Counted from the stretch's first letter, positions 13,076-64,000 are shown. The stretch is 64,000 nucleotides of DNA from an uncultured bacterium (GCA_963729625.1 CAVSOU010000008.1:352001-416000), one strand, 5' to 3'. Notes: generated from the letters alone by a model not told the origin. Numbers and translations: made by a program.

Positions 13076-13103
13076 CAAGTTCTGACGCTCCTTTCTAGGG
13101 CCG

Positions 13104-14273: not shown

Positions 14274-14286
14274 GGTCTGCCTCCTT

Positions 14287-15156: not shown

Positions 15157-15241
15157 CGCCTTCCCGACCAGGCGCAGCTTCTGATCCCGCAGGCAGGCAC
15201 GCGGCCCGATTTCGTCCTAGACGGCGCCCGACCGGCAAGCA

Positions 15242-16124
<883 letters not shown>

Positions 16125-16150
16125 TTGCCACAACGCCAACGGCCACCATA

Positions 16151-45286: not shown

Positions 45287-45606
45287 ACACGGACGCCAAC
45301 ACCGGCTGGCTCATCGACAAGGGCATCCAGGTCATTCATTGCCAGCAGCCAAGCAGCGACTTCCGCTTGCACGCACAGCCCACGGAGCAGGTCAGGGAGC
45401 AGGCTCAAGCGGGTATCATCGCGGAGGTTTCCCGGACCCTGCCATAAAGCAGTAGAGTAGTGGCATGTGTGGACAACCAGGCTGAAATGCCCGGCGCTAC
45501 ATCCGGCCACAGCCGGCCCCGGCCCTGCCATCCGCCGCAGCTGGAGGTCATATGCATGGGAAGTCGGGCCGGAGGCTCAATAGTTACCCTTACAGGGAGG
45601 CGCGCC

Positions 45607-48420
45607 GTGGCTGAATACCGCAAGAAGCTGATCGAGGTGGCGCTGCCGCTCGAAGCCATCAACGTTGCGTCGGCGCGCGAGAAGAGCATCCGGCATGGCC
45701 ACCCCTCCACGCTCCACCTCTGGTGGGCGCGCCGGCCGCTCGCCGCCTGTCGCGCCGTCCTGTTTGCCTCACTGGTTGATGACCCCAGCTCGCTTCCCGA
45801 GCAGTTTCCCACCCTCGAAGCGCAGGAAACAGAAAGGCAGCGCCTGTTCCGCATCATCGAGAAGCTGGTGTTGTGGGAGAACACCACCAACGAGGGGGTG
45901 CTGGACGAGGCGCGCGCCGAGATCATGCGATCGACTGGCGGCCATCCGCCCCCGGTGCTCGACCCCTTCTGCGGCGGCGGCTCCATTCCACTGGAGGCCC
46001 AGAGGCTGGGCCTGGAAGCGCACGCCAGCGACCTCAACCCGGTGGCCGTGCTGATTACCAAGGCGCTGATCGAGATCCCGCCGAAGTTCGCCAACATGCC
46101 GCCCGTGCATCCGGGCGAGCGCATGGCCCGGTCGTGGAAAGGCGCGCAGGGACTGGCTGAGGACGTCCGCTATTACGGCAAGTGGATGCGCGACGAGGCG
46201 TTCAAGCGTATCGGCCATCTTTACCCGAAGGCCCAGCTGCCCAAGGAGCACGGCGGGGGCGAGGCCACGGTGATCGCCTGGCTGTGGGCGCGCACCGTCA
46301 CCTGTCCAAATCCCGCGTGTGGTGCCAGGATGCCCCTAACACGTTCCTTTTGGCTTTCGACAAAGCCAGGCAATCGGGCGTTTATCGAGTATGCTGTCGA
46401 TCGCACCACGAAGGAAGTTGGGTTCAAGGTATTCATCGGGCAGGGAACCCCGCCCGATGGCACTCTGGATCGCCGTGGCGCGCGCTGCGTTGTCTGCGAC
46501 GCTCCAATTCCATTCGACGTTGTGCGGGCAGAAGGAAATGCTGGACGATTGGGCGCACAACTCATGGCGATCGCCGCTGAAGGAAATCGCGGGCGGATTT
46601 TTCTGTCGCCTACACCCGAGCATGAACTCGTGGCCAAGAACGCAACGCCCACTTGGAAGCCCGATTCTCAGTTGCCGGAACATGGGTTAGGTTTCCGGGT
46701 TCAACCATATGGACTGACAAGACACTCGGACCTCTTCACAGATCGCCAACTCGTAGCACTAACTACGTTCAGCGACCTTATCAGTGAGGCGCGTGGGAAG
46801 ATACTTTCTGACATGGCGACGTCTCACGATTTGGCAGGTCGAATCGCACCTGTAGCTGAAAGCGTCGATGGACCGACTGACTATGTTGACGCACTTTCGA
46901 CATACCTTGCGCTGTCGGTCAGCAAAGCAGCCGACCTGGCTTCGACACTTTGCCACTGGCAGCCGAATCCACAACACCTGAAGATTGCGCCAACTTTCTC
47001 TAGGCATGCGGTCCCAATGTCTTGGGATTACGCGGAGGGAAACCCGTTCAGCGGCTCATCTGGAAACTTCAGCAGGCAGTGGGAGTTGATAGCTGAACTC
47101 CTTGATGAGACTTATTCCGAGATCCCGTCCGTTGTCCAGCAACAGGATGCAATGACATACCGACAGGATGAACCCAAAGTATTGGTCTCGACAGATCCAC
47201 CTTACTATGACAACATCGGATACGCTGACCTTTCGGACTTCTTCTATATTTGGCTGCGTGCCGTGCTCGAGAGAACTCATCCAGCCTTGTTCACAACCTT
47301 GCTCGTCCCCAAGAGCAACGAGCTTATAGCTGATCAGCACCGACACGCCGGTAGGGCTGGGGCTCATCAGTTCTTCGAAAATGGACTGGCAACGGTGTTC
47401 AGCGGGCTCCGGCGGGTGCAGGATTCGAACGTCCCGATGACGGTCTTCTACGCATTCAGGCAGGTTGAAAATGATAACAATCTAGGCGAGTCGGGCGACG
47501 ATCAATTGGTCGTGGCATCTACCGGCTGGGAAACCATGCTGGAGGGTTTGCTCAGCGGCGGATTCACAGTTCTTGGTACATGGCCGATGCGCACCGAGCG
47601 CTCCGGCCGCCTGCGAGAGAACGGGAGCAACGCCTTAGCCTCCTCAATCGTGCTCGTCTGTCGTCCTCGGTCGGAGGCGGCAACCGTCGGGACACGCCGT
47701 GAGTTCCTTCAGACTCTAAAGCACGAACTGCCCGAGGCGCTGCGATTGATGCAACACGGCAATATCGCGCCGGTGGACCTGGCGCAAGCGGCCATCGGCC
47801 CCGGCATGGCAGTGTATTCGCGCTACTTGAAGGTGCTCGAGCCCGACGGCAGCCCCCTGCCCGTACGTGCCGCCCTTGCGCTGATCAACCAGACCCTCGA
47901 CGAGGTTCTGGCCGAGCAGGAAGGTGAGTTCGACGCCGATACGCGCTGGGCGCTGGCCTGGTTTCAGCAGTTCGGTGTTGACGAAGGACCCTACGGCACC
48001 GCGGAGACGCTCTCCACCGCCAAGAACACCAGCGTGGCCGGCATGGTGCAGGCCGGCATCGTCCAGGCTAGCGGCGGCAAGGTGCGATTGCTCAAGCGCG
48101 AGGAGCTATCAGCAGATTGGAATCCGGCGAACGATGCACGCCTCACGGTGTGGGAGACCTGCCAGCACCTGATCCGTACACTGCAGGATGAAGGCGAGCA
48201 GGCGGCTGCCGCGCTCCTGGCTGCATCAGGGCAGGCGGGCGAGAATGCCCGCGACCTTGCATACCGGCTCTACGTGATCTGCGAGCGGAAGGGCTGGGCC
48301 TCCGAGGCGCTTGCCTACAACAGCCTGGTGACGACATGGTCGGCGCTGGGCAGGACGGCGGCGCAAGCGGAGGAGCGGAAGCGCGCGCCGGTGCAGGGTA
48401 CTTTGCAAGGAATGGCCTAG
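45607..48420 (+). CDS. DUF1156 DNA methyltransferase (HmaB-type)
   Basis: KKLIEVALPL, HLWWARRP, DPFCGGGSIP, TDPPYY; RBS GGGAGG before GTG 45607. Confidence 0.93.
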   Translation: MAEYRKKLIEVALPLEAINVASAREKSIRHGHPSTLHLWWARRPLAACRAVLFASLVDDPSSLPEQFPTLEAQETERQRLFRIIEKLVLWENTTNEGVLDEARAEIMRSTGGHPPPVLDPFCGGGSIPLEAQRLGLEAHASDLNPVAVLITKALIEIPPKFANMPPVHPGERMARSWKGAQGLAEDVRYYGKWMRDEAFKRIGHLYPKAQLPKEHGGGEATVIAWLWARTVTCPNPACGARMPLTRSFWLSTKPGNRAFIEYAVDRTTKEVGFKVFIGQGTPPDGTLDRRGARCVVCDAPIPFDVVRAEGNAGRLGAQLMAIAAEGNRGRIFLSPTPEHELVAKNATPTWKPDSQLPEHGLGFRVQPYGLTRHSDLFTDRQLVALTTFSDLISEARGKILSDMATSHDLAGRIAPVAESVDGPTDYVDALSTYLALSVSKAADLASTLCHWQPNPQHLKIAPTFSRHAVPMSWDYAEGNPFSGSSGNFSRQWELIAELLDETYSEIPSVVQQQDAMTYRQDEPKVLVSTDPPYYDNIGYADLSDFFYIWLRAVLERTHPALFTTLLVPKSNELIADQHRHAGRAGAHQFFENGLATVFSGLRRVQDSNVPMTVFYAFRQVENDNNLGESGDDQLVVASTGWETMLEGLLSGGFTVLGTWPMRTERSGRLRENGSNALASSIVLVCRPRSEAATVGTRREFLQTLKHELPEALRLMQHGNIAPVDLAQAAIGPGMAVYSRYLKVLEPDGSPLPVRAALALINQTLDEVLAEQEGEFDADTRWALAWFQQFGVDEGPYGTAETLSTAKNTSVAGMVQAGIVQASGGKVRLLKREELSADWNPANDARLTVWETCQHLIRTLQDEGEQAAAALLAASGQAGENARDLAYRLYVICERKGWASEALAYNSLVTTWSALGRTAAQAEERKRAPVQGTLQGMA

Positions 48421-48471
48421 ACAAGCCTCGATAAACCTGTCCATCACGTTGTGGGTGTATGCCTAGTTTGA

Positions 48472-49644
48472 ATGCGTAGGGCGATGAATAGCGGAGTGCT
48501 GGCAGCACTCGTCGTGCGCGGCGACGGTCTATTCGCACGTGCCGGCGGACTTGACCCAATAGCGGATGGTTTGCAGGCGTATTGCGCCGACTGTGGTGTG
48601 GTCATGCTGCTCCTGGCTCGCGACTGGGGTGCCATGCCAGTGCTCTCACAGGCTCGCCTGTCTCGTCCGCACGAGATCCTGCAAGTTTCGAGCACAGCCG
48701 ATTCTGCGCGTCGACTTCAGGAGCGCCTCAGCACGATGGGAGTGCCCCTCTCGCACGTTGTGTATATCGGCTACGGTGTGCACGACGCCGACGATGCCCG
48801 GCACCTACGTGTTCCCTATCTGTCAGCCGCATGGGCGGGCAAGAGTCCGGGATCGGGAGTGCAGTTGGATAGCGCCGACCACCTGACCGAGTATTTGCGA
48901 ACCTTCCTTGCAAAGCAGCGTCTGTGGCTTCAAGAAAACGCTGTAGCTGGCAGCTGCGGCCTTGCTGACTTTGCGTGGCTGAGCGTAGCCGCTGAAAGTG
49001 AAGGATCGCGGGCTTTTCGGTTGGCGTTCTTCTGCGAGCACTTGTTCACGAGTCTTGCGCTTAGTGACCTTGGGCGTTGGGCAGACGTATGGACGGTCGA
49101 CGGCGACTCTGACGGATCTGATCGACTGCTGAAGTTGGCACGCGCCCGAAGCTGCCTGTTTGGTGCGCCTGTGGTGCGACTGCCTCTGACATCACACTTG
49201 CCAGAAGGCCGCTCGCTCGCCGGCAAGAAGGCATTGCTGCTGCAGTATTGCCCTAGTCGACATGACCAGGACGTTGCCACAGCCGAATTGACTCACTCGG
49301 GTGCGACTTCTGTTCGTTGTGCGAGTCTGTTCACGACACGAGACGACAACTCCCAGCTCGACTTTGACGCCGATTGTGCTCGGTATGCTGATGAAATGCT
49401 CGCTGCGGCGGACCGGTTCGTCCAGCGTTACACTGAGCGACGGCGTAGACGTCAAGGTACGGCTGAGGAAAGAGCATGGGAGTCAGATGACGCAGACGGT
49501 GAGCATTGGATGGCGCACTGGAGCGACGCCAACCGCCATGAGACGAGATTTGGAGACAAGCGTCTCGGATGGCTAGCGCATGAGGGGGGTGCCTTTGGCT
49601 CTGTCTCGCTCTACGATGACTACAGTGACGAAGGCGAGGCATAG
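48472..49644 (+). CDS. Hypothetical cargo protein with degenerate HAD-like and PRTase-like segments and an acidic tail
   Basis: VVYIGYGVHDADDAR..AAW (HAD motif IV-like); LAGKKALLL..GATSVRCASL (ComF/PRT-like). Confidence 0.55.
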   Translation: MRRAMNSGVLAALVVRGDGLFARAGGLDPIADGLQAYCADCGVVMLLLARDWGAMPVLSQARLSRPHEILQVSSTADSARRLQERLSTMGVPLSHVVYIGYGVHDADDARHLRVPYLSAAWAGKSPGSGVQLDSADHLTEYLRTFLAKQRLWLQENAVAGSCGLADFAWLSVAAESEGSRAFRLAFFCEHLFTSLALSDLGRWADVWTVDGDSDGSDRLLKLARARSCLFGAPVVRLPLTSHLPEGRSLAGKKALLLQYCPSRHDQDVATAELTHSGATSVRCASLFTTRDDNSQLDFDADCARYADEMLAAADRFVQRYTERRRRRQGTAEERAWESDDADGEHWMAHWSDANRHETRFGDKRLGWLAHEGGAFGSVSLYDDYSDEGEA

Positions 49645-49715
49645 TCCAAGCATGGCAGCTCGAGGCTGGAGGGGGGTTCCCTCGCAACACCGCATTCAAA
49701 GTGGACTGCAAGTAG

Positions 49716-49979
49716 ATGACTGTAACCGCCGATATGGTTCGGGATGCATACGAGGCAGATCGCCTTGCCAGACATACAGGGACCCGGAGGATGTCGGTTC
49801 CGCAGTTCCTCAAGTTGACGAAGTCCGGTGCAGCCCTCATTGATGCACTCGCTCAATTCGAGAGAGGTCGCCTGGTGCTCCGGACTTATCAGCTCATGAG
49901 AACTTCAGCCGAGGGTGTCGGCGCCGAAGCGAGATCTGCGAATGAAGGGTGTGTCTGGGCCAATCTGGTCCGTCAATGA
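49716..49979 (+). CDS. Hypothetical protein
   Basis: 87-aa ORF co-oriented with the cargo; no motif. Confidence 0.3.
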   Translation: MTVTADMVRDAYEADRLARHTGTRRMSVPQFLKLTKSGAALIDALAQFERGRLVLRTYQLMRTSAEGVGAEARSANEGCVWANLVRQ

Positions 49980-50180
49980 GTACCTAACCGAATCGCCGTG
50001 GACTACAACGGCGGTTGGACTTCGACCATACGATGACGCCGATGAGCCTGGCTAGGCCCATGCTACCGTGTAGACAAAGCGTCCCACTTCCGGCTTCTGC
50101 CTTTGGGTATAGAGTCTAGTGCGGAAAGCAGCGAAACTGCGCAGATTAGCGACAAACATGCCGCCATGAAGGGTTGATGC

Positions 50181-50261
50181 ATGGCTACCTAAAACTATGA
50201 ACGTGTCGGCCGAACCCTTGAAGTCCTGAAGGACGCGCTCCGCCCATATATCAAGCGCGAG
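50181..50261 (+). pseudogene. Remnant 1 of the DUF499 ATPase 5' end
   Basis: MAT*NYERVGRTLEVLKDALRPYIKRE vs MATSNYERVGRTLELLKDALRPYIERE at 57510. Confidence 0.92.
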
Positions 50262-50268
50262 CGTCCCG

Positions 50269-50397
50269 ACCGCGCGGCACATCGATAGTGACACACCAGC
50301 TTCTTGTTCAGGACTGAGATGCCAAACGCTACCAGGAGCGCGACATCCGCAACGCGCTACGCCGAATCCAAGAGGCCGGTCAAGGGACGGGCGCAAA
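50269..50397 (+). repeat. 129-bp direct repeat, copy 1 (copy 2 at 52774-52902)
   Basis: Offset 2505; one mismatch seen. Confidence 0.92.
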
Positions 50398-50851
50398 GAT
50401 CCCTGGCCCTCCTGGTCGCGCTCCTGGCCGGCGCAGAGTCCGATGCGAACCGTGGGCGCAGTCTCATCCTGCTGGAGGAGCTGGAGACTGCGCTGCACCC
50501 AGGGGCCACGAGAGTGCTGCTGGATGCGATGTCCGAGGCCAGCGAACACTCGCAAGTAGTAGTCACGACGCACAGCCCGGACCTTCTCGACCAGAAAGAC
50601 ATCCCCGAAGATTCCGTCCTCGCGGTCGAAGCCGAGGAGGGAGTCGCGAGGATCGGCCCGATCGATGAGGTGGGACGTTCGGCCATTCGCGACCGCCTGT
50701 TCACAGCCGGCGACCTCTTGCGAACCGCGGGCCTGCACCCCACTGGCGCCGAGGCAGGCGGAGCCAGCCTAGATGGGCGAATGGGCCAGGCCAGTGTGCA
50801 TTGCCTGCATCGTCGAGGGCGCTGGCGAGGCAGAGGCAGTCCCGGAGCTCG
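50397..50851 (+). pseudogene. Duplicate of the AAA ATPase 3' end and DUF4276 start (54027-54489)
   Basis: RSLALLVALLAG..LHPGATR..TTHSPDLLD; small deletion near 50755. Confidence 0.92.
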
Positions 50852-51079
50852 CTCAGCGCCGGCGGGCTGGTGGCGGCGCCGGGTGAGCAACCTGCACTGT
50901 AGGGTGACCCCCAGGCCGCGCGGCAGAAGCGACTGACCGCGGTGCTGCAGGCACACGCGCAGCGGCATGGAAAGACGGCCTTCCACCACTGGCAGGTCGA
51001 CCCGCTGGCGGACGATGAATGGCAACAGGAGGATGGCATCGCATGACTCGGCGTCTGCGCCGAAAGCAGCCTGGTCGAG

Positions 51080-52186
51080 TTAATACGGCGTTGCTGAGGG
51101 AATCACTGTCGGATATGCAAGGGAAGTGGGTGATGGAGCAAAGGTAGGCACGGCGGTCGGCGAGGCAATCACTGTCGGATATGCAAGGGAAGTGGGTGAC
51201 GGAGCAAAGGTAGGCACGGCGGTCGGCGAGGCAGTCGCGGTCGATGGGGCAGCGAGGACCGGAGTCGCGATCAATGCGGCAGTGGAGTTCGGCAACTTCA
51301 ACACCCACCGCACCCGAGCCTGCACATCCACTGTTTTCGGCGAGGTGGGCGGCAAGTCCCCGACCACAGTCGTTTGCATCCCGGCGGGCACGAGGACAGA
51401 GTACTTCCCGTTGGTGACAAGCATTAATCCCTCGATGACTGTGACCACCACGGTGCGGGAGCGCTGGGCATAGCGAATGTCGAAGCGCGTGCCCTTGGTT
51501 GCGGCCACGGCAGTACCAGCCTGCACTGTATGGCTCACTGCGCCGTGAACGACTGCCCAAAAAAGGTCGCCACCGCTCATCGAAGAATGCAGGGGGTCCC
51601 GAATCTGCACATCGCTGTTGCTGTTGAGGTCGATCAGAGTCCCATCACGCAAGCCGATAGAGGCCAGCTGGCCCTGAGCCGTGAATGCATGATAATCCTG
51701 AAACAGATCGCTGCCTACGGTTCCGCTGCGCCCCGGCGCGTTCGGCGGCAGAATAGTGATACCGTGCACGAGGGAAACGACACTGGCCGGCGGACCAGGC
51801 ACGATCGGGATACTCAATGAGGCCGGCGGGAATCCAGGGGATGCGGCCTGCACCTCCGCCTTGCCCAGCGTCGTGGCATGGACAGTCAGTGCGATGGTGC
51901 CATGCGCTGCCATGCCGCCGACCGTCGTACCGGTGCCGACGACATGTACTTGCGCCGGTACCAGCTCACCTGCTGAGCTGCGCACGGTTACAGTCAGCAC
52001 CACGTCGCGGCCGACGTTGATCTGCGCAGGTGTCACGGCAATACGCAGCGTGGCGGCGGCCTTTGCGGGCGGCGGAGTCGATGCAGCGAGAAACAGGATG
52101 ACTGCGAGAGAGAGCAGGCGGCCGACGATATGCACGATCACTCCTGTCCATGGGTGGGCGTTGGCGCAAGCATGAATGCACGTCAC
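51080..52186 (-). CDS. Exported FecR-domain protein with Pro/Thr-rich tail
   Basis: Signal peptide; LRDGTLIDLNSNS, AATKGTRF, VTVIEG; start uncertain. Confidence 0.75.
   Translation of the reverse strand: MTCIHACANAHPWTGVIVHIVGRLLSLAVILFLAASTPPPAKAAATLRIAVTPAQINVGRDVVLTVTVRSSAGELVPAQVHVVGTGTTVGGMAAHGTIALTVHATTLGKAEVQAASPGFPPASLSIPIVPGPPASVVSLVHGITILPPNAPGRSGTVGSDLFQDYHAFTAQGQLASIGLRDGTLIDLNSNSDVQIRDPLHSSMSGGDLFWAVVHGAVSHTVQAGTAVAATKGTRFDIRYAQRSRTVVVTVIEGLMLVTNGKYSVLVPAGMQTTVVGDLPPTSPKTVDVQARVRWVLKLPNSTAALIATPVLAAPSTATASPTAVPTFAPSPTSLAYPTVIASPTAVPTFAPSPTSLAYPTVIPSATPY
51101..51232. repeat. 66-bp tandem repeat, two copies (ASPTAVPTFAPSPTSLAYPTVI)
   Basis: Copies start at 51101 and 51167. Confidence 0.92.
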
Positions 52187-52465
52187 GCTACAGCAGCCTG
52201 ATCATGGCGTCAAGTGGCAGCGCCTGAAAGGAGAGCACCTATAACTCGGGGGTGTTGTCCTATCTTCGCGCGACGTCACGCGTAGCCGCTGACACAGTTG
52301 CGTGTTTGGTCACAGCGCCGAAGTCCTGTTTCCGGATTTGCCCGGGAACGGAACCAAGACGGCCGCGCGCAACCGCTTATGCTCTTGCACGGTTATCACC
52401 TGATGTCCCGGCAAGAGCCGACCAAGTCGGCGCGGCAAGCACTCGTCGAGTACAATGCGCACGGA

Positions 52466-52729
52466 TCAGCGGCGACCAGTGACCCTGGTCTGCGGCGGCA
52501 CGTGGTGGGATTGTTGACGCGCAAGTGATTCCACGGTGTCATCAGCTATGTGAATAACCGCAGCGGCGCTCTCCGCTGAGACCCTGGGGAAATCTTCGAG
52601 AAATTCCGCCAGTGGCTGCCCCGCGGCGAGATAGTCGAAGAGATTGCGCACGGGTACCCGAGTACCGGAAAAACATACTTCGCCGTCAAGACGCTCGGGG
52701 TCGCTGTCAATTATGGTTGAGATGTCCAT
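52466..52729 (-). CDS. DUF433 antitoxin-like protein (no partner toxin seen)
   Basis: DPERLDGEVCFSGTRVPV..FDYL..FLEDFP. Confidence 0.88.
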   Translation of the reverse strand: MDISTIIDSDPERLDGEVCFSGTRVPVRNLFDYLAAGQPLAEFLEDFPRVSAESAAAVIHIADDTVESLARQQSHHVPPQTRVTGRR

Positions 52730-52773
52730 CTGTCCTGTCTCTCCCTATGCCGTGCAGGGTTCTATTCCAAGAT

Positions 52774-52902
52774 ACCGCGCGGCACATCGATAGTGACACA
52801 CCAGCTTCTTGTTCGGGACTGAGATGCCAAACGCTACCAGGAGCGCGACATCCGCAACGCGCTACGCCGAATCCAAGAGGCCGGTCAAGGGACGGGCGCA
52901 AA
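52774..52902 (+). repeat. 129-bp direct repeat, copy 2
   Basis: Matches 50269-50397. Confidence 0.92.
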
Positions 52903-52939
52903 CCCACCACCTTCAACAGCGCGAGACGGGCAGGCTAGA

Positions 52940-53092
52940 CTCCACGCGATCCGTGAGCGGAAGGGCTGGGCCTCCGAGGTGCCGGCGTGCAACAGCGTGG
53001 TCACGACGTGGCCGGCGCTCGGCAGGGCGGCGGCGCAGGCGGAGGAGCGGAAGCAGGCGCCGGTGCAAGGGACGTTTGTAGGGATGGGGTAA
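52940..53092 (+). pseudogene. Remnant 1 of the DUF1156 MTase 3' end
   Basis: Colinear with 48268-48420: ERKGWASE..NSVVTTW.ALGR.AAQAEERK.APVQGT..GM.*. Confidence 0.92.
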
Positions 53093-53195
53093 GACTCGGA
53101 CGAATAGTCCGCATCATATTTCCTGATATCGGGCTTGCGGAGTCTGGGGTGTTACAATGCCGTCAAAAGCGTCGCAAGAACCGGAGGATCTCAAG

Positions 53196-54410
53196 ATGGC
53201 GCCGGCTAAGCAGATCACGCGCCTCGTGCTCGAAAACTACAAGAGCATTGCCGGATGCGACGTGCGGCTGCAGGCGCTTACGCTCCTGGTCGGACGGAAC
53301 GGCGCCGGGAAGTCCAACTTCCTCGATAGCCTCCGGTTTGTGAACGACGTGCTCTTGAGCGGATTTCAGCAGCCGATAGCCGAGCGTGGTGGAATCGAAG
53401 AGCTGATGTGCCACGCCCCGGGCATGCTGCGAACTGGGCTGAGGCGTGAGTTGGCCGTCGGACTGGAAATGCGGTTAGGCGACAAGACCGACGTGCAGTT
53501 CTCCTTCAAGTTGGTGTCTCGCTCACCGGGCAGCTACGTACTTGACCGGGAAGAGTGCACGATCGACGAGCACAGGGACGGGCATCTGCCGGTCCACTAC
53601 CGCAACGAGATGGGTAAGGTCGACACGAACGTCACCCTTGCAGCAGGCCTCCGGCTGCTTCCAGATCGGCTGTACCTACAGGGTGCGGCTGGGCTGGACC
53701 AGTTTCAGTCTGTCTACGACGCGCTGACTCACGCGCGCTCCTACCGCGTGGATCCCGCTGCTATGCGCATCCCTCGCACATTCGCTGCAAGCAATGAGCT
53801 AGCAACCGATGCTTCGAATATTGCGAGTGTTCTGTGGCAGTTACAGCAAACAGATCGCCTGCTACTGGATCGCATCGAGAGATATCTGGAAGCCATCGTG
53901 CCGGGTCTGCACAGCATCGAGATCAAACAGATAGGCTCATTTCTTATACCTCACTTCCGCACAGCGACCGACGACGGAAGAAGAACCACAGAGTTCCCGA
54001 TCGCCAGTATGTCTGACGGTACTCTCAGATCCCTGGCCCTCCTGGTCGCGCTCCTGGCCGGCGTAGAGTCCGATGCGAACCGCGGGCGCAGTCTCATCCT
54101 GCTCGAGGAGCCGGAGACCGCATTACACCCAGGCGCTACCAGAGTGCTGCTGGATGCGATGTCTGAGGCCAGCGAACACTCGCAAGTAGTAGTCACGACG
54201 CACAGCCCGGACCTTCTCGACCAGAAAGACATCCCCGGAGATTCCGTCCTCGCGGTCGAAGCCGAGGAGGGAGTCACGAGGATCGGCCCGATCGACGAGG
54301 TAGGACGTTCGGCCATGCGCGACCGGCTGTTCACAGCTGGCGAGCTCTTGCGAACCGCGGGCCTGCACCCCACTGGCGCCGAGGCGCCGAGGCAGGCGGA
54401 GCCAGCCTAG
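53196..54410 (+). CDS. AAA_21/ABC-type ATPase
   Basis: LENYKSI, GRNGAGKSN, MSDGTLR, LLEEPETALHP, TTHSP. Confidence 0.93.
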   Translation: MAPAKQITRLVLENYKSIAGCDVRLQALTLLVGRNGAGKSNFLDSLRFVNDVLLSGFQQPIAERGGIEELMCHAPGMLRTGLRRELAVGLEMRLGDKTDVQFSFKLVSRSPGSYVLDREECTIDEHRDGHLPVHYRNEMGKVDTNVTLAAGLRLLPDRLYLQGAAGLDQFQSVYDALTHARSYRVDPAAMRIPRTFAASNELATDASNIASVLWQLQQTDRLLLDRIERYLEAIVPGLHSIEIKQIGSFLIPHFRTATDDGRRTTEFPIASMSDGTLRSLALLVALLAGVESDANRGRSLILLEEPETALHPGATRVLLDAMSEASEHSQVVVTTHSPDLLDQKDIPGDSVLAVEAEEGVTRIGPIDEVGRSAMRDRLFTAGELLRTAGLHPTGAEAPRQAEPA

Positions 54411-55028
54411 ATGAGCGAATGGGCCAGGCCTGTGTGCATTGCCTGCATCGTTGAGGGCGCTGGCGAGGCAGAGGCAGTCCCGGAGCTCGTGCGCCGAATC
54501 GCGCACCATCTGGAGCCGCCGGTTACGGTGGACCCCGTCCTGTCCCAACGCATCTCCAGGAGCAGACTGGCCGGAAAGCCTCCATACCTGGAGAGGGCAA
54601 TCGAATTCGCTGCACGCAGGGCCGGGAGCGGCGGAGCAATTCTGTTGGTTCTGGATGCAGACGACGACTGTCCTAAGACTCTTGCGCCATCACTGCTCGA
54701 GCGGGCACGCGCCGTGAGAGGCGATATGCGGGTAGCGGTAGTGCTGGCCAAGTGCGAGTACGAAGCCTGGTTCCTTGCCGCCGCCTCCTCCTTGCGCGGG
54801 CAGCATGGGCTGGCAGCAGATCTGGTGCCGCCTGCTGAGCCCGAGGCCGTCAGGGACGCAAAGGGCTGGCTTACCAGACACATGCCGATCGGGGCTCCAT
54901 ACAAGGAAACGCTCCATCAGCTGCAGCTCACTCGATACTTCGATCTGGCGCTAGCGCGATCGGCCGGCTCGTTTGACAAGCTCTGGCGAGATATCCAGGT
55001 ATTGGTCGGCGCTGTAAACCAGAGCTGA
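54411..55028 (+). CDS. DUF4276 family TOPRIM-like protein
   Basis: IVEGAGE, LDADDDCP, EYEAWFLA; abuts the ATPase stop. Confidence 0.82.
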   Translation: MSEWARPVCIACIVEGAGEAEAVPELVRRIAHHLEPPVTVDPVLSQRISRSRLAGKPPYLERAIEFAARRAGSGGAILLVLDADDDCPKTLAPSLLERARAVRGDMRVAVVLAKCEYEAWFLAAASSLRGQHGLAADLVPPAEPEAVRDAKGWLTRHMPIGAPYKETLHQLQLTRYFDLALARSAGSFDKLWRDIQVLVGAVNQS

Positions 55029-55127
55029 TGTTCGACTTCCGGACCCAGCTGTCGGATGTAGAGTAGATGGCGACACCGCATTTCTTCCCGGGCCGTGCAG
55101 CGACCGTCAGCAGCAAGGGTGATTCAT

Positions 55128-55179
55128 GTGGCTACTGAAGGATGCGCTTCGCCCTCATATCGAGCGCGAGCATGTGGCG
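55128..55179 (+). pseudogene. Remnant 2 of the DUF499 ATPase 5' end
   Basis: gtggctac, internal deletion, then LKDALRPHIEREHVA; upstream agggtga is shared with 57502. Confidence 0.8.
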
Positions 55180-55282
55180 CGGTTGCCGACGAACCGGCCA
55201 GGCGGCAGTACCGTTGAGACAAGCACCGGGCTGCATGACCGTACTCAGCACAAATGTCTGCCGATCCTTGGCTTTTCGTGTA

Positions 55283-55354
55283 GGCAGGACGGCGGCGCAG
55301 GCGGAGGGGCGGAAGCGGGCGCCGGCGCAGGGCACGATGGCGGAGTTGGGATCG
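55283..55354 (+). pseudogene. Remnant 2 of the DUF1156 MTase 3' end
   Basis: GRTAAQAEGRKRAPAQGTMAELGS vs GRTAAQAEERKRAPVQGTLQGMA*. Confidence 0.85.
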
Positions 55355-55399
55355 CCGCTGCTGGAGGTCTGGCTTCTAACCGGCTTATTACACCCCAGA

Positions 55400-55445
55400 T
55401 TGACACCTTACGGTTACAAGCATAGCATGTAACCGTAAGGTGTCA
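55400..55445 (+). promoter_or_regulatory. hipBA promoter and operator
   Basis: TTGACA-17-TAGCAT; perfect 18-bp inverted repeat 55401-55418/55428-55445. Confidence 0.85.
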
Positions 55446-55456
55446 GGGGAGATCGC

Positions 55457-55738
55457 ATGAGGATCGGGTCCATACGAGACATGGCGGCGGCTATGCGAGG
55501 CCGTCGCACGGACCTCGGGCTGAGCCAGGCAGCGTTGGCTCGACGCGCGCGCGTTTCTCGCAAGTGGATCAGTGAATTTGAAGCAGGCAAACCGACTGCC
55601 GAGCTTGGCCTGGTGATTCGCGTGTTGGATGAGCTTGGCATTGTGCTCGACTTGAACAGCGGCGAAGAGGCAGCGCCGTCCGGGGCTGCGAAGCGGGTGG
55701 ATCTCGATGCTCTCCTCGATGAGCAGCGCGTCAGATGA
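55457..55738 (+). CDS. hipB: HipB-like XRE HTH antitoxin
   Basis: LGLSQAALARRARVSRKWISEFEAGK. Confidence 0.9.
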   Translation: MRIGSIRDMAAAMRGRRTDLGLSQAALARRARVSRKWISEFEAGKPTAELGLVIRVLDELGIVLDLNSGEEAAPSGAAKRVDLDALLDEQRVR

Positions 55739-57015
55739 CCGATTCGCTCATCGTGGTCCTCGACAACGCTATCGCCGGCGTACTGACCCGCCTGTCTGGA
55801 GGCAAGCTTCGCTTCGACTACCACGACGACTATCGTGGCCGACCGAGCTCTACGCCTCTCTCGATCTCCATGCCGGTCCAGGTGCGCTCCCATCCCGACC
55901 GCGTTGTCACCCCATGGCTGTGGGGTCTGCTCCCCGACAACGAAGCGGTACTCGCACGCTGGGCGCGACAATTCCAGGCCTCGGCATCGTCCCCATTCTC
56001 ATTGCTGGCCACTCCCATCGGACATGACTGTGCGGGGGCAGTACGTTTCGTCACGCCGGATGCCGTCGACCAGCTGGCGGACCGGCCCGGCGACGTCACC
56101 TGGCTCACGGAGGATGAGGTAGCACAGCGCCTGCGGGAGCTGCGAGAGGACGGCACGACCTGGTTGGGTCGCTCGTACACGGGACAATTCAGCCTGGCGG
56201 GCGCGCAGGCCAAGACCGCGCTCTTATTGCAAAATGGCCGCTGGGGAGAACCCTCCGGCCGCACTGCAACCAGTCACATTCTCAAGCCTGCCGTGGCCGG
56301 TCTCGACGACCATGACCTCAATGAGCACATCTGCCTTGATGCAGCGCATAGGGCCGGCCTTCTCGTGGTTCGGACGCATGTCGCGCGTTTCGGCGAAGAG
56401 ACGGCAATCGTCGTGGACCGTTACGACCGGCGGGGCCTCGACGGCGGCGTGATCCGCATTCATCAAGAAGACCTCTGCCAGGCACTTGGCATTCTTCCAT
56501 CGCGCAAGTATCAAAACGAAGGCGGCCCTGGGCCGATGGATATAGCGAGAGTCTTTCGTCAGGCCATGCCGTACCGCGCCGCCGTCGACGCGGTCTGGCG
56601 ATTCGTCGAGGCGCTCGCCTGGAACTGGCTGATTGCCGGCACGGATGCGCACGCAAAGAACTATTCACTGCTCTTGGCCGCCGACCAGATTCGTCTGGCT
56701 CCCCTCTATGACATCGCATCTGCTCTTCCCTATGGCATGCACGAGAAGAAGCTTCGGTTCGCGATGAAGATAGGGGGCGATTACCGCGTATTCCCGCATC
56801 GCAATACGTGGAGAGAAGCTGCACTCGAGCTCGATATCGATGCCGACGAGACAGTCGCGCGGGTCGAGACCCTTGCGGCGCGCGCACCGGATGCCTTCGC
56901 GGCCGCGGCCTCATCCCACGACATCGTCTCTCTGAAGCGTGACTTGCCTGGACGGCTGGTCGACCTCGTCGCTGCCCGTGCCGCTCGATGTGTTCAACTT
57001 CTTCGCGCGACTTGA
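55735..57015 (+). CDS. hipA: HipA family kinase toxin
   Basis: LSISMP, FSLAGAQAK, HQEDLCQALG, GTDAHAKNYS, LAPLYD. Confidence 0.95.
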   Translation: MTDSLIVVLDNAIAGVLTRLSGGKLRFDYHDDYRGRPSSTPLSISMPVQVRSHPDRVVTPWLWGLLPDNEAVLARWARQFQASASSPFSLLATPIGHDCAGAVRFVTPDAVDQLADRPGDVTWLTEDEVAQRLRELREDGTTWLGRSYTGQFSLAGAQAKTALLLQNGRWGEPSGRTATSHILKPAVAGLDDHDLNEHICLDAAHRAGLLVVRTHVARFGEETAIVVDRYDRRGLDGGVIRIHQEDLCQALGILPSRKYQNEGGPGPMDIARVFRQAMPYRAAVDAVWRFVEALAWNWLIAGTDAHAKNYSLLLAADQIRLAPLYDIASALPYGMHEKKLRFAMKIGGDYRVFPHRNTWREAALELDIDADETVARVETLAARAPDAFAAAASSHDIVSLKRDLPGRLVDLVAARAARCVQLLRAT

Positions 57016-57039
57016 ATGGTGCATCCGGCAAGTTCGCCG

Positions 57040-57330
57040 GACCTTGAAGCGCCCGTGTGTGTCGTTTCACCGCGCCGCTGCTGCCACGATATACTCGATT
57101 ACCGCGGCGCCTTTCACGCCGCGCTATCCGAATGGGGTAGCAATTCCGGTGGGCGAAGCCGGCCGGACCCGAGCCGGCGTCATCCTCTGCCACCAGGTCC
57201 GTACGATCTCGCTTGCGCGTAGAGGCAACTCACTCACCCCGATCGGTTATCTCACCGATCCGGATCTGCGGAACAAGGTGCGTGGCGCACTGGCACGGCA
57301 GCTGGGGCTCGACATCCCGTCAAGCGCTGA
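57040..57330 (+). pseudogene. MazF/PemK-like toxin remnant
   Basis: GVAIPVGEAG..GVILCHQVRTISLAR..IGYL..KVRGAL; no clean N-terminus. Confidence 0.6.
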
Positions 57331-57509
57331 CGGCGCAACGGGGCGCCGCGTCTTCGAGATCCGCAGGGTGTCTACCCGTTGCCTGTGGTTCCGGCTTGCC
57401 GGTCCGTTCGCAGGCTACCTGCCCTACTCGTTGGGTGTAGAGTATAAGGCGATAACAGAACGCTTCTCACGCCGCAGACCGGCGCCGCGCACGAAAGGCG
57501 GAGGGTGAA

Positions 57510-60500
57510 TTGGCTACATCGAACTACGAACGTGTTGGCCGAACGCTCGAGTTGCTGAAGGACGCGCTCCGCCCCTACATCGAGCGCGAGTACGAGGCGA
57601 AGTACGGGCCGAGCTGGATGGGGCAAGCCGCGCAGGTGCTGCGCAACGATCGCAGCCTGACGGTCGAGGAGGGCCAGCCGCATCTGGACGTGCAGGCGCT
57701 CCTCAACCTGATGACCTACCAGTGGAACGAGGTGTTCGCCGGTACGCTCGGCCAGGCGGAGCGCAGCCTGGCCTTCGAGCTGCGCGACATCCGCAATCGC
57801 TGGGCGCACCAGCACGCGTTCAGCAGCGACGACACCTACCGCGCGATGGATACCGCGCACCGCCTGCTCACGGCGATCTCCGCACCCGATGAAGCGCGTG
57901 AAGTGGACCGGCAACGCCAGGAGATCCTGCGCGTCCGTTTCGCCGAGCAGGAGCGCAGCGAGGTGCGCCGCGTGACCAGGCAGACCACCGAAGGCACGCC
58001 GCTAGCCGGACTGAAGCCCTGGCGCGAAGTGATCACGCCGCATCGCGACGTGGCCAGCGGCCGCTACCAGCAGGCGGAATTCGCCGCCGACCTCGGCCAG
58101 GTCTATCGCGACGAGGGATCGGACGAGTACCGGGACCCGCGTGAATTCTTCCGGCGTACCTACGTGACCGAGGGCCTGCACCACCTGCTGACCGGCGCCC
58201 TGCTACGGCTGACCGGCGCCGGCGGAGACCCGGTGATCGAGCTGCAGACGAACTTCGGCGGCGGCAAGACTCACTCCATGCTGGCGCTGTTTCACCTGTT
58301 CTCCGGCACGCCCGCCGGCGATCTGGCCGGTATCGAGGCGGTTCTGCGCGAGACCGGCGGATTTCAACCGCCAAAGGCGCGGCGAGCCGTGCTCGTGGGC
58401 ACCGCGCTCTCGCCGTCCCAGCCGCACACCACGCCGGAAGGCCTGACCGTTCGCACGCTGTGGGGCGAGCTGGCCTATCAGCTGCTCGGCGTCGAAGGCT
58501 ACGCATTGGTCGCCGCAGCCGACGCCGAGAGCGTGAGCCCCGGATCCGACGCCCTGCGCGAGCTGTTCAGCAAAGCCGCGCCCTGCCTGATCTTGATCGA
58601 CGAGTGGGTGGCCTATGTCCGCCAGCTCTATCACGTGCAACATCTGCCGGCCGGCTCTTTCGAGGCCAATCTTACGTTCGCTCAGGCGTTGACCGAAGCG
58701 GCGAAGGCGGCGCCCAAGACACTCGTGGTGGCCAGTATTCCGGCGTCAAACATCGAGATCGGCGGCGAAGGCGGGCAGGCGGCCCTCGAGCGCATCAAGA
58801 ACACTTTTGGGCGCGTGGAATCGGCGTGGCGGCCTGCGACCGCGGAGGAGGGCTTCGAGATCGTGCGCCGCCGCCTCTTCCAGCCGATCGACGATCCGGC
58901 GCGTTTCGCGGCGCGCGACGCGGTGGTGAGCGCGTTTGCCAACCTCTACCGCGACCAGGCGCAGGAGTTTCCGGTTGCGGCGCGCGAGGGCGCCTATCGC
59001 CGCCGCCTGGAAGCGGCCTACCCCATCCATCCCGAGCTGTTCGACCGCCTGTACAACGACTGGTCCGCGCTCGACAAGTTCCAGCGCACCCGCGGCGTGC
59101 TGCGCCTGATGGCGGCGGTGATCCACGAGCTATGGGAGCGGCAGGATGGCAGCCTGTTGATCATGCCGGGTAATCTGCCGATCGACGCCCAGCCGGTGCA
59201 ACGCGAGCTGACCCATTATCTGGACGACAACTGGCTGCCGGTAATCGAGAAGGATGTCGACGGGCCGCACTCGCTGCCGCTGACGATCGATCGCGAGAAC
59301 ACCAATCTCGGCCGCTACTCCGCCTGCCGCCGCGTGGCACGCACCCTGTTCATGGGCTCAGCGCCCACTCTTCGAGGCGCCAACAAGGGGCTCGACGACC
59401 GCAGCATCAAGCTCGGCTGTGCCCAGCCCGGCGAGGCGGTGCCCACGTTTGGCGACGCGCTGCGCCGGTTGACCGACGCGGCGACCTTCCTCTTCGTCGA
59501 CGGCACACGCTACTGGCTCTCTACCCAGCCGAGCGTGAACCGTCTGGCGCAGGACCGCGCGGCCCAGCAGCCGATCGACAGGGTATGGCTGGAATTGCGC
59601 ACGCGACTGAAGGCGAACAAAGACGAGCGCGGCCTCTTCGCGGCAGTGCACCCAACGCCGGCCGGCAGTCTCGACATACCGGACGAGCCGGCTGCGCGCC
59701 TGGTGATCCTCGATCCCGAGAAGGTTCACAGTTTGCGCGCCACTGATAGCGATGCGTTGAAGACCGCGGCGAACTGGCTCGACCACCACGGAAACGGCGC
59801 CCGCAACTTCCGCAACATGGTGGTCTTCCTGGCACCCGACAAGGCGCGGCGAGATGACCTCGAAGTGGCGGTTCGCCAGTACCTGGCCTGGCAGTCCATC
59901 GCTTCCGAGAGCCAGACGCTGAATCTCGATCCCTTTTCACTCGGCCAGGCCCAGACCAGGCTCAGGGAAGCGAACGGCGCCGTCGACGCGCGCATCAAGG
60001 AGACCTACTTCTGGCTGCTGGCGCCCGCACAGCCCGACCCGCTCGGCCCGGTCGAGTGGCTGGAGCTGCGGCTGCAGGGCCAGGAAGCGCTGGCCGTGCG
60101 GGCCGGGAACAAGCTGAAGAACGAGGGACTGCTGATCGTCGAGCTCGGCGGCGTGCCGCTGCGCATGGAGCTGGACAAATACCTCTGGCGTGACAGGGAT
60201 TATCTGTCGATCAAGCAGCTGTGGGACTATTTCGCTCGCTACATCTACCTGTCTCGGCTCAAGGACCAACAGGTGCTGCTTGGCGCGATCAAGCAGGGTG
60301 TCGGTACCCTGGCCGGCGATACCTTTGCCTATGCCCAGAGCTTTGACGGAGCGACCGGACGGTACCTGGGACTGGCGACCAATCAAATCGTGAGTCCTAT
60401 CCTGGATGGTTCCAGCGTGATCGTCAAGCCCGCTGCCGCACAGCGCCAGATCGACGCCGACGGGGCAGCCGAGCAGGCGAAGAAGGCGCGACAGCCGGAG

Positions 60501-60851
60501 CCTGGGGGCAGCTACGGTGTGCCCACGGAGCCACCGCAGCCTGCCAACGGCGTGCGGGAGTCCGGCGCCGCCCTGGCCGAACGTCCCGCGGCAGCGCCGG
60601 CCGAGCGCGCACGGACGCCGCGCCGCTACCACGGCAGCGTGGAGACCGGGTCGCAGCGATTGGGCGTGTTCGCCGGGAACATCGCCAACGAGATCGTGCA
60701 GCACCTCGCGTTGCTGCCAGGCGCTGAGGTGACGATCACGATCGAGATCCAAGCGACCGTGCCGGACGGCGTGCCCGACAACGTGGTGCGCACCGTGGCC
60801 GAGAACAGCCGGACGCTGCACTTCAGCTCCAGCAGCTTCGAGGAAGAGTAA
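57510..60851 (+). CDS. DUF499 AAA+ ATPase with N-terminal Swt1-like HEPN domain (HmaC-type)
   Basis: RNRWAH HEPN motif, LKPWREVITPH, QTNFGGGKTH, LIDEW, YPIHPE. Confidence 0.93.
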   Translation: MATSNYERVGRTLELLKDALRPYIEREYEAKYGPSWMGQAAQVLRNDRSLTVEEGQPHLDVQALLNLMTYQWNEVFAGTLGQAERSLAFELRDIRNRWAHQHAFSSDDTYRAMDTAHRLLTAISAPDEAREVDRQRQEILRVRFAEQERSEVRRVTRQTTEGTPLAGLKPWREVITPHRDVASGRYQQAEFAADLGQVYRDEGSDEYRDPREFFRRTYVTEGLHHLLTGALLRLTGAGGDPVIELQTNFGGGKTHSMLALFHLFSGTPAGDLAGIEAVLRETGGFQPPKARRAVLVGTALSPSQPHTTPEGLTVRTLWGELAYQLLGVEGYALVAAADAESVSPGSDALRELFSKAAPCLILIDEWVAYVRQLYHVQHLPAGSFEANLTFAQALTEAAKAAPKTLVVASIPASNIEIGGEGGQAALERIKNTFGRVESAWRPATAEEGFEIVRRRLFQPIDDPARFAARDAVVSAFANLYRDQAQEFPVAAREGAYRRRLEAAYPIHPELFDRLYNDWSALDKFQRTRGVLRLMAAVIHELWERQDGSLLIMPGNLPIDAQPVQRELTHYLDDNWLPVIEKDVDGPHSLPLTIDRENTNLGRYSACRRVARTLFMGSAPTLRGANKGLDDRSIKLGCAQPGEAVPTFGDALRRLTDAATFLFVDGTRYWLSTQPSVNRLAQDRAAQQPIDRVWLELRTRLKANKDERGLFAAVHPTPAGSLDIPDEPAARLVILDPEKVHSLRATDSDALKTAANWLDHHGNGARNFRNMVVFLAPDKARRDDLEVAVRQYLAWQSIASESQTLNLDPFSLGQAQTRLREANGAVDARIKETYFWLLAPAQPDPLGPVEWLELRLQGQEALAVRAGNKLKNEGLLIVELGGVPLRMELDKYLWRDRDYLSIKQLWDYFARYIYLSRLKDQQVLLGAIKQGVGTLAGDTFAYAQSFDGATGRYLGLATNQIVSPILDGSSVIVKPAAAQRQIDADGAAEQAKKARQPEPGGSYGVPTEPPQPANGVRESGAALAERPAAAPAERARTPRRYHGSVETGSQRLGVFAGNIANEIVQHLALLPGAEVTITIEIQATVPDGVPDNVVRTVAENSRTLHFSSSSFEEE

Positions 60852-63800: not shown

Positions 63801-64000
63801 GCACGCCCAAGCTCAATTCGGCTCGTGCCCAGCAGCGTGCCGGCGATCTCGAGGCGCGCATGCAGAAGCGGCTGACCGAGCTGGAGCAGGAGCGGCATCT
63901 GTCCGCTGCGCCGCCGGTAGTGGTCGGCGGGGCCGCGATCGTGCCTGCCGGCCTGCTCGCGCTACTGCGCGGCGAGGCAGCCGATTCCACGTACGCGTAT
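60851..64000 (+). CDS. SNF2-family helicase (HmaA-type), runs off the window edge
   Basis: Not in the ORF track. ATG overlaps the TAA of the ATPase; PLPHQ, LADDPGAGKT, DEAH, TATPH, GEGINLQ, EQRFGRIHRIGQ. Confidence 0.93.
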   Translation, partial: MARLEDLRPGSAIRGIVPDALVTVLNVNWYGDNVVELTYKDAQGKPGIELLYRDREASLEVAVTGRPWSFDADGGLLRLVSEAYRIRLAYLFDPVLAVHTSLVDPLPHQITAVYHEMLTRQPLRFLLADDPGAGKTIMAGLLIKELLIRGDLRRCLIVCPGNLVEQWQDELYRRFHLPFEILTNDKLESARTGNWLAETSLAICRLDKLSRDEDLQEKLGVTDWDLVVCDEAHKLSASYFGGEVKYTKRYLLGQKLSGLTRNFLLMTATPHNGKEADFQLFMALIDSDRFEGKYREGVHETDASDLMRRLVKEKLLKFDGTPLFPERMAYTVNYALSPAEAVLYKQVTDYVKDEFNRADDLDKSRRGTVGFALTILQRRLASSPEAIYQSLCRRRERLEKRLREEQLLKRGADARIDLTQDLPLLDDDDLDDLDDAPETEVEAAEERVVDQASAARTIQELQAEIATLKRLEDLAQQLRVSRADKKWDELSRVIQDEVNSPSPLRGETASASQEGSHRKLVIFTEHRDTLTYLCLRIRALLGRAEAVATIHGGMSREERRHAQEAFTQDREVQILVATDAAGEGINLQRAYLMVNYDLPWNPNRLEQRFGRIHRIGQTEVCHLWNIVAKETQEGHVYTTLLKKLEQERDTLGGQVFDVLGKVTFDNRPLRELLVEAIRYGDRPDVQARLTQIVDTALDHEQLITLLDERALADETMDVGRVQQIREEMERADARRLQPHYIASFFLEAFRQLGGTVHERESHRYEITHVPAIIRNRDRQIGTGQPVLQRYERITFEKPLISLHGKPVASFVCPGHPLLDATIDILRERHRDLLKRGAVLVNPSDGGDGLRVLFYLEHAIQDARIGLDGNRRVISRRLQFVEIDGQGNARAAGYAPYLDYRPLHDDERELLAGTLEAPWLRADLEKQAMSYAIQQLVPQHFEEVKKRKEALLDRTIAAVKERLTKEVNYWDLRAQELKLLEEAGRTPKLNSARAQQRAGDLEARMQKRLTELEQERHLSAAPPVVVGGAAIVPAGLLALLRGEAADSTYAY

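Follow-up and report, generated by a model that had tools for sequence, protein, structure and literature searches.

The embedding of defence genes within Hma, BREX, DISARM and type I restriction-modification loci is a published pattern that has been used for finding new systems. For Hma, embedded genes are reported in 931 of 1,485 systems (Payne et al. 2024, 10.1101/2024.01.29.577857), and the available text of that study leaves the origin of the embedding open, mentions a 'genomic sink' and does not contain the words 'recombination', 'remnant' or 'truncated'. Here we analyse a 64,000-nucleotide (nt) stretch of DNA from an uncultured bacterium (GCA_963729625.1 CAVSOU010000008.1:352001-416000), referred to as the window, which carries an Hma locus whose cargo slot, located between the methylase gene hmaB and the ATPase gene hmaC, is occupied by a stack of five to six layers, namely a ShosT-like gene, a broken HEC-01, a FecR-like segment with a DUF433 gene and a broken PIN gene, an intact HEC-01AB pair, hipBA and a broken mazF, interspersed with partial copies of hmaB and hmaC ends. 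These gene-end scars provide direct sequence evidence on the entry of cargo, a question left open so far, and the window is the most elaborate example so far of cargo stacking in an Hma slot.

The locus shares with the Hma/HEC set of Payne et al. 2024 the core HmaA, HmaB and HmaC, the position of the slot and the HEC-01AB pair, which is a named embedded candidate in that set and for which phage defence was not detected in the assays described in the available text. That survey, to the extent of the same text, covers up to three embedded genes and excludes systems with pseudogenes, whereas in the window five to six layers and legible scars take up 9.1 kb. The same three core components, with a HEPN domain on the DUF499 ATPase, appear under another name, DUF499-centred Type-1 BREX-related systems, in an architecture catalogue (Rakesh & Krishnan 2026, PMC12839542) whose available text lacks the terms 'remnant', 'recombination', 'pseudogen' and 'cassette'. 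The overall arrangement is similar to that of the effector-immunity arrays of type VI secretion systems (T6SS) in Vibrio cholerae (Kirchberger et al. 2017, PMC5361080), in which new modules are placed beside a conserved anchor while older ones are pushed along and retained, and for which the authors, in the part of the article available, propose homology-facilitated illegitimate recombination, in which one end is anchored by homology and the other is joined illegitimately, drawing a parallel to integrons without an integrase. The T6SS arrays as described there have a single upstream anchor, and their orphans are immunity genes of obvious selective value; in contrast, both flanking genes are scarred in the window, the cargos are unrelated defence or toxin-antitoxin (TA) modules and the host locus is itself an immune system. 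Rhs and contact-dependent inhibition (CDI) orphan arrays (PMC2935791 and PMC3967940, as reported in PMC5361080) likewise build up, by repeated displacement, strings of orphaned ends that lie downstream of an intact gene, and their repeated conserved fragments can recombine later. According to that account, the Rhs/CDI orphans are alternative 3' ends that can be re-activated by recombination, whereas the scars of the window are non-functional leftovers and its cargo genes are independent. A 2026 study of P2/P4 hotspots (PMC13586616) refers in its available text to recombination remnants and possible illegitimate recombination in general terms only, and the limited collection of literature that we searched on anti-phage hotspots, illegitimate recombination and remnants contains no account of Hma gene-end scars. 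By analogy, the process would be one familiar from polymorphic-toxin loci, and what appears to be new here is that it concerns the cargo slot of an immune system and leaves scars from both flanks.

All three Hma components are recognized by PADLOC on the plus strand, in the order hmaB, hmaC, hmaA that is found in the genus, with HmaA running past the end of the window (Table 1). HmaC bears an N-terminal Swt1-like HEPN domain (HEPN_Swt1, Pfam E 1.2e-36) ahead of its DUF499 domain (Pfam). The distance between hmaB and hmaC, 9,090 nt, was compared with that in 80 loci retrieved with the first 397 residues of HmaC and in a same-genus locus (L012, from genome G003). Including the window, the gap or upstream stretch exceeds 250 nt in 46 loci, and in the remainder it mostly measures 0-130 nt. 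Gaps with cargo are usually 0.4-2.9 kb long among the fetched loci, the largest with the usual layout being 4.2 kb (L063); a gap of 8.7 kb in L070 contains hmaA, and that of the window is the largest of those compared.

The repeats were mapped by self-comparison of the window with blastn and tblastn. An earlier reading made from the sequence alone (the sequence-only reading) had counted three copies of the hmaB 3' end and three of the hmaC 5' end, and every copy that it listed is recovered, with blastn E values between 1e-5 and 8e-39 (Table 1, where B and C denote the ends of the intact genes and primed labels the remnants). All repeats are significant and in register with the ends of hmaB and hmaC, as expected if these gene ends served as anchors. 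That reading had, however, taken the two kinds of repeat to alternate strictly and had labelled the hmaC part as the 5' end of DUF499. The actual order is B, C'1, X, B'1, C'2, B'2, C, a fourth hmaB fragment (X) having been overlooked, and the repeated part of hmaC corresponds to the first helix of the HEPN domain. With the cargo included, the order from hmaB runs ShosT-like gene, C'1, X, broken HEC-01, FecR/DUF433/broken PIN, B'1, HEC-01AB, C'2, B'2, hipBA and broken mazF. The tandem stacking of cassettes proposed earlier is supported. C'1 is also matched by 79 hmaC N-terminal peptides of other loci. X begins 7 nt after C'1 and is joined directly to the truncated HEC-01 copy with ~1 nt of microhomology, and the HmaB homology of its second copy, within B'1, is detected by tblastn. 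Within the window, the C' remnants end at codons 27 and 31, and the B' remnants start at ~aa 892 and ~aa 963.

Sequence differences between the remnants and the intact hmaB and hmaC amount to 10-17% and fall mainly on synonymous positions. The ratio of non-synonymous to synonymous differences per site (pN/pS), derived from Nei-Gojobori counts of the remnants against the intact gene ends, is 0.14 for C versus C'1 (8.5 synonymous and 3.5 non-synonymous differences), 0.19 for C versus C'2, 0.39 for B versus B'1 and 0.41 for B versus B'2. The synonymous bias that had been noticed by eye in the first ATPase remnant is thus confirmed, and a range of 0.14-0.41 extends it to all of the remnants. Because these ratios indicate divergence as functional genes, the remnants resemble alleles from other lineages that diverged while under purifying selection and were orphaned afterwards, rather than local duplicates, which agrees with the proposal that the cassettes came from different strains. 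The window therefore displays, by its repeat map and pN/pS values, partial anchor-gene copies from different lineages interleaved with unrelated modules, as in a displacement array.

Similar scars are present in other Hma loci. A search of the 45 other gaps, for which the queries were peptide panels from the C terminus of HmaB and the N terminus of HmaC as well as the gene ends of each locus itself, found clear scars in five (G003, L034, L078, L091 and L079). In G003, hmaB is followed by a HigB-like/HTH pair, a B' remnant (117 nt, 78.6%, E 5e-24), an IS200-like gene, an unassigned gene and hmaC, and the last 53 nt of this B' together with 20 nt beyond the stop are identical to the end of its own hmaB. 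L034 has the layout hmaB, C' (~62 codons), HEC-01AB, hmaC, while in L078 and L091 a C' of 15 codons and a B' of ~20 codons precede HEC-01AB and hmaC downstream of hmaB; the latter two loci are counted as one event because they are 80-90% identical to each other. In L079, an MNT/HEPN pair is followed by B' (55 aa), then directly by C' (21 codons), a HEPN/MNT pair and hmaC. Across the window and the other loci, C' ends at codons 15, 21, 27, 31 and ~62 and B' has lengths of ~20, 24, 39, 55 and 94 aa, and such variation between events and genomes argues against a site-specific process. Three species of the genus each carry different cargo between hmaB and hmaC, G003 having a HigB-like TA pair and the IS200-like gene and G004 a SoFic-like gene.

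What we observe directly are the repeats and how they have diverged, the broken layers, junctions covered by separate data sets, and scars carried by other genomes. The reading that we favour, with a probability of roughly two in three, is that the cargo slot of an intact Hma locus was filled several times, each cargo arriving through a recombination event that had its anchor in either hmaB or hmaC and one junction that was illegitimate. DNA with a different cargo would come in from another Hma locus, and one of its ends would pair with a conserved part of hmaB or hmaC and be resolved by homologous recombination, whereas the other end would be joined illegitimately, or at short microhomology, a few dozen codons into the neighbouring resident gene. 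The donor sequence would thereby rebuild an intact gene, the displaced end of the resident gene would remain as a scar and the older cargo would be moved along, where later events may cut into it; repeated rounds could produce the present stack. Clean crossovers in both hmaB and hmaC would exchange the cargo and leave no trace. A scar requires one non-homologous junction inside a flanking gene, and one homologous anchor combined with one illegitimate join is therefore the simplest scheme. This could proceed by homology-facilitated illegitimate recombination or, equally, by the single crossover of a circularized fragment. The recombination route, the anchor gene and any order of arrival are matters of inference. 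The layouts of L078/L091 and L034 favour an anchor in hmaC, with a cargo-less hmaB|hmaC junction seemingly opened inside hmaC, whereas in the window an anchor in either hmaB or hmaC would fit. For the X repeats and the G003 repeat, a circular piece inserted by a single crossover, or else gene conversion, seems the better match, and more than one route has probably acted.

Several observations weigh against the anchored scheme in its simple, repeated form. The panels of hmaC N-terminal peptides detect no hmaC remnant between X and B'1, which does not suit a simply repeated cycle. The two X copies are 99% identical, whereas the HEC-01 copies that adjoin them share 93% (P ~0.01 for so few mismatches), and an extra event is therefore needed, such as gene conversion or single-crossover insertion of a 2.4-kb segment. 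Both C' remnants of the window stop within codons 27-31, which could hint at a preferred site; no special site is required, because the conservation of hmaC over 82 loci collapses exactly there, from 0.62-0.68 for nt 1-90 to 0.39 for nt 90-180. When hmaC, the 3' end of hmaB and the 5' end of hmaA are compared with G003 and G004 by sliding identity, no clear mosaic breakpoint emerges that would mark the anchoring crossover, and no relative was found, among those compared, in which hipBA or cargo 1 alone lies between intact hmaB and hmaC.

The near-identity of the X copies, which flank the 2.4-kb segment, would be explained if the stretch bounded by the 3' end of hmaB and the 5' end of hmaC had been copied in place several times and the copies had then decayed, with cargos exchanged one by one by double crossover. 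The second partial HEC-01 copy and the exact match of the G003 scar to the end of its own hmaB point in the same direction. We nevertheless consider such local tandem duplication quite improbable, as the pN/pS values of the remnants, and the value of 0.15 for the truncated versus intact HEC-01A (pS 0.154, pN 0.023; 95% aa identity), are unlike those of copies that lost their function and decayed where they lay, the distances among the C' and B' copies match those to the intact genes, and remnants of 15-94 codons would make poor arms for later double-crossover swaps. It is less probable still that an assembler strung co-existing single-cargo strain variants into a false tandem stack, an outcome named by the sequence-only reading as one that, if shown by long reads, would refute it. 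The source is a metagenome-assembled genome (MAG) of 5.4 Mb from soil, 87% complete with 5.2% contamination, whose closest named relatives are Chloroflexota MAGs, and related, differing strains are present in the public runs; yet the genome is assembled into 21 contigs and the one containing the window (C8) exceeds 1 Mb. Moreover, the remnants show truncation, stops, deletions and clear divergence, the C'1|X and C'2-spacer-B'2 junctions are unique sequence that no strain-bubble path could make, and the same types of scar occur in unrelated assemblies. Contigs from two public studies also cross two of the junctions: one from run X1 (181 nt, zero mismatches) spans C'1|X at 50187-50367, and one from run X3 (396 nt, 10 mismatches, 97.5% identical) crosses the left edge of B'2 and reaches into hipB at 55222-55617. 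Only X3 is counted as independent, X1 being possibly the source sample or a sibling. The public runs contain just 7-17% of the sampled words, and stretches left uncovered (for example 52938-54071 in X1) were given no weight.

Alternatively, discrete cassettes, each delimited by an hmaB 3' end and an hmaC 5' end, might loop out in circular form and insert again at fixed sites in the manner of an integron, driven by a hypothetical recombinase or purely by RecA acting on the scars. We regard such dedicated mobility as unlikely, although the C'|B' junction appears twice in the window and a further time in the L078/L091 lineage, inserted segments are bordered by direct repeats of 117-129 nt in both the window and G003, and the shared end of the two C' remnants would suit a fixed site. 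A single X3 contig, furthermore, joins 50225 to 55135, i.e. C'1 to C'2, skipping 4909 nt, which is exactly what loop-out would leave. The shorter side of this joint measures 88 nt at a depth of 2.7, however, the match threshold was 90%, and joints of this kind often come from other organisms or repeats, a warning that the method itself gives; we take it as only a hint of a collapsed variant. Joints in a further data set (X4), with sides of 21-22 nt, were disregarded as too short. Against dedicated mobility, a scan covering 45 of the 48 greedily chosen open reading frames (ORFs) of at least 120 aa in the window, together with the smaller ORFs of the array, gave no Pfam match to an integrase, recombinase or transposase, breakpoints vary among events and genomes, leaving no fixed boundary site for the cassettes, and the common C' end lies at the edge of the conserved hmaC block. 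The earlier proposal that the array arose without an integrase is upheld by the same scan and the same variation, as it is by the similar scars in other Hma loci. Its description as an array-like way of collecting genes implies a dedicated mechanism, whereas the evidence fits ordinary anchored recombination. A more speculative extension of anchored recombination, which we consider possible but would not bet on, is that hmaB and hmaC ends act as portable homology arms, such that cargo moves between the Hma loci of distant bacteria as a unit of hmaB 3' end, cargo and hmaC 5' end, and that the scars subsequently serve as RecA-dependent, att-like sites for integron-like shuffling without an integrase. 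If such a cycle exists, the 129-nt X repeats, the 117-nt G003 repeat and the C'1-C'2 contig would be its traces.

The single-cargo relatives that the sequence-only reading had anticipated are found in part. HEC-01-type cargo occurs alone between hmaB and hmaC in seven of the 80 fetched HmaC loci, with 24-46% identity to the copy of the window; no close relative of HEC-01A was found among the genome contigs. For cargo 1, no close relative was found among the genome contigs and none in any Hma locus, and a word-indexed protein search returned only the protein itself. In 76 of the 80 metagenomic loci with hipBA relatives, the flanks that were fetched lack any Hma-like gene; the other four have distant Hma-like genes nearby, and in none is hipBA embedded between hmaB and hmaC. 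Because neither cargo has a single-cargo relative, we infer the corresponding donors rather than see them; the lack of an embedded hipBA among 80 relatives does not prove that such donors do not exist.

Table 1. Positions of the Hma genes, gene-end repeats and cargo layers, in window coordinates.
Feature	Position	Strand	Evidence
hmaB, intact DUF1156 N6-adenine methylase	45460-48420	+	PADLOC HmaB 1159 bits, profile positions 7-960 of 967; Pfam DUF1156
B, final 153 nt of hmaB	48268-48420	+	
Cargo 1, 390-aa divergent ShosT-like protein (predicted HAD-like and phosphoribosyltransferase (PRTase)-like fold)	48472-49644	+	
C'1, remnant of hmaC codons 1-27, TAA at codon 4	50181-50261	+	83.75% over 80 nt to 57511-57590, E 3e-18; 85% aa identity
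X, first copy, 129 nt, divergent hmaB 3' part (~aa 892-920)	50269-50397	+	128/129 nt identical to 52774-52902
Broken second HEC-01 (HEC-01A codons 291-417, HEC-01B codons 1-29)	50397-50859	+	93% over 463 nt to 54027-54489; PADLOC HEC-01A E 1.4e-40, profile positions 271-386 of 399
Reverse-strand segment, 1.9 kb	50860-52773	-	
FecR-domain ORF	51080-52186	-	Pfam FecR E 2.3e-9
Truncated PIN_10/DUF5615 toxin, ~first 30 codons	52310-52462	-	Profile positions 1-35 only, E 0.002-0.006
DUF433 antitoxin-like gene, partner of truncated PIN	52466-52729	-	Pfam E 6.6e-16
B'1, hmaB 3' remnant: second X copy (52774-52902) and last 153 nt (52940-53092)	52774-53092	+	Last part 84% over 145 nt to hmaB 3' end, E 8e-39, ungapped, own TAA stop in register; protein-level homology from ~52823, HmaB aa 892-985, 50% identity, tblastn E 3e-19
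HEC-01A, intact, ABC ATPase	53157-54410	+	PADLOC PDLC04178 E 2.6e-122, profile 6-390 of 399; Pfam AAA_21
HEC-01B, intact, DUF4276/TOPRIM-like	54411-55028	+	PADLOC PDLC04196 E 4.5e-69, profile 3-193 of 197; Pfam DUF4276
C'2, remnant of hmaC codons 1-3 and 16-31, codons 4-15 deleted	55128-55182	+	82% over 45 nt, E 3e-6; tblastn 55099-55182, E 5e-8 (small database)
Spacer between C'2 and B'2, 97 nt, origin not assigned	55183-55279		
B'2, remnant of last 24 hmaB codons, stop codon lost	55280-55351	+	90.6% over 53 nt, E 2e-14; 80% aa over 20 residues
hipBA module (operator-like palindrome 55401-55445, hipB 55457-55738, hipA 55735-57015)	55388-57015	+	Pfam HTH_31 E 5e-9; Couple_hipA E 1e-21; HipA_C E 2.9e-47
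5'-truncated MazF/PemK-like remnant	57047-57300, within ORF 56939-57508	+	PemK_toxin positions 21-107 of 109, E 2.6e-4, below gathering score
hmaC, intact HEPN_Swt1-DUF499 ATPase	57510-60851	+	PADLOC HmaC 1073 bits, profile 3-941 of 941
C, opening 81-90 nt of hmaC	57510-57590	+	
hmaA, SNF2 helicase	60851-64000, cut by window end	+	PADLOC HmaA 1572 bits, profile 1-1037 of 1176

The first layer, cargo 1, has no match to any Pfam, NCBIfam or PADLOC model. Its only convincing homologue found anywhere is a full-length one, P0002 (32% identity, E 1.6e-31), and two distant homologues, P0004 and P0007, match PADLOC ShosT with E 3e-31 and 3e-38. The best matches of an AlphaFold2 model, which is of low confidence (predicted local distance difference test score 58.5), are the ShosT structures 8zvd, 8zvc and 8zvb (E ~1e-12, template modelling score 0.46-0.48), and by these models and distant homologues cargo 1 may be described as ShosT-like. 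The stretch of its alignment that lies opposite the acidic PRTase-loop of its relatives, which we take to be the phosphoribosyl pyrophosphate-binding motif, is not conserved. Cargo 1 is followed by 537 nt without a recognizable gene (49645-50180), and the ORFs in 49580-50055 have no Pfam or PADLOC match, such that a DprA-like ShosA partner, and hence a ShosTA pair, was not found there.

The intact HEC-01A and HEC-01B are adjacent and both near full length, and the broken second copy lacks 1,124 nt relative to this cassette. The genes hipB and hipA overlap by 4 nt, as a type II TA module, and the limits of the module (55388-57011) are placed where nucleotide homology to the 80 metagenomic hipBA loci begins and ends. 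The ORF of the MazF-like remnant overlaps the end of hipA and has no accompanying antitoxin gene; the remnant shows weak similarity to residues 40-111 of EndoA/YdcE and does not lie 3' of hipA in any of the 80 relatives. To judge from the sequence, it can be read as an older mazEF cargo whose start was overwritten when hipBA came in. Three layers end at non-homologous junctions, at HEC-01A codon 291, at HEC-01B codon 29 and, for mazF, ~20 codons short of its start beside the hipA stop. The view that cargos were added rather than replacing each other thus holds for the tandem layers, but three of these are broken (the HEC-01 copy, PIN and mazF), indicating that older cargo was overwritten as well. 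The GC content of the layers (0.57-0.67) does not set them apart from the hma genes, and a frame plot of GC at third codon positions is not decisive for the stretches without annotation.

The scars suggest that cargo travels from one Hma locus to another along with parts of the neighbouring hma genes and can be added as well as swapped, and the array keeps a readable record of former cargos, dead ones included. Anchored recombination would accordingly provide a testable model of cargo entry into the slot. Orphan hmaB and hmaC ends offer a search handle for old or decayed defence cargo, and surveys will miss such arrays if they leave out loci that contain pseudogenes or in which the embedded genes number more than three.

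We note some further features of the loci examined. The FecR-domain ORF contains, in its C-terminal part, a 66-nt tandem duplication (51096-51227) in perfect register with 97% identity; homologues of 83-94% identity occur in other metagenomes, and the ORF has eight matches in its own genome, seven besides itself. The IS200-like gene of G003 encodes a Y1 transposase (L012 2257-2676), adjoins the B' scar and is the only mobility gene in the annotated slots. L078 and L091 belong to MAGs labelled Isosphaeraceae and Solirubrobacteraceae, i.e. different phyla, and their nucleotide identity extends over the C'-B' scar, a likeness that reflects either a recent whole-locus transfer or a binning error. 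Scar candidates in L021, L053 and L071 were too weak to be counted, that of L071 being a short repeated motif: 21-24 nt identical to nt 151-180 of its own hmaC recur about every 32 nt in the cargo gap (8001-8277 and 9823-9890). Additional hmaB 5' fragments are located in the hmaA-hmaB gap of L023 (5316-5477, aa 37-94) and L091 (3268-3462, aa 55-122), and this second Hma cargo slot may bear the same type of scar. In L022, the hmaB frame continues for ~380 codons beyond the usual stop (8811-9963), possibly as an in-frame fusion with cargo, and L019 carries short scrambled hmaB fragments (9298-9926) right upstream of an intact hmaC, its methylase gene appearing decayed. Elsewhere in the window, a second defence-like patch (7400-16200) contains a ParE-domain ORF (7437-7976), an N6_N4 DNA methylase (9361-10650), a DndB-like protein (13104-14273) and a DUF559/REase-like ORF (15546-16124), beyond which lie a PIN gene (18656-19048) and a Uma2 nuclease-like ORF (22909-23292).

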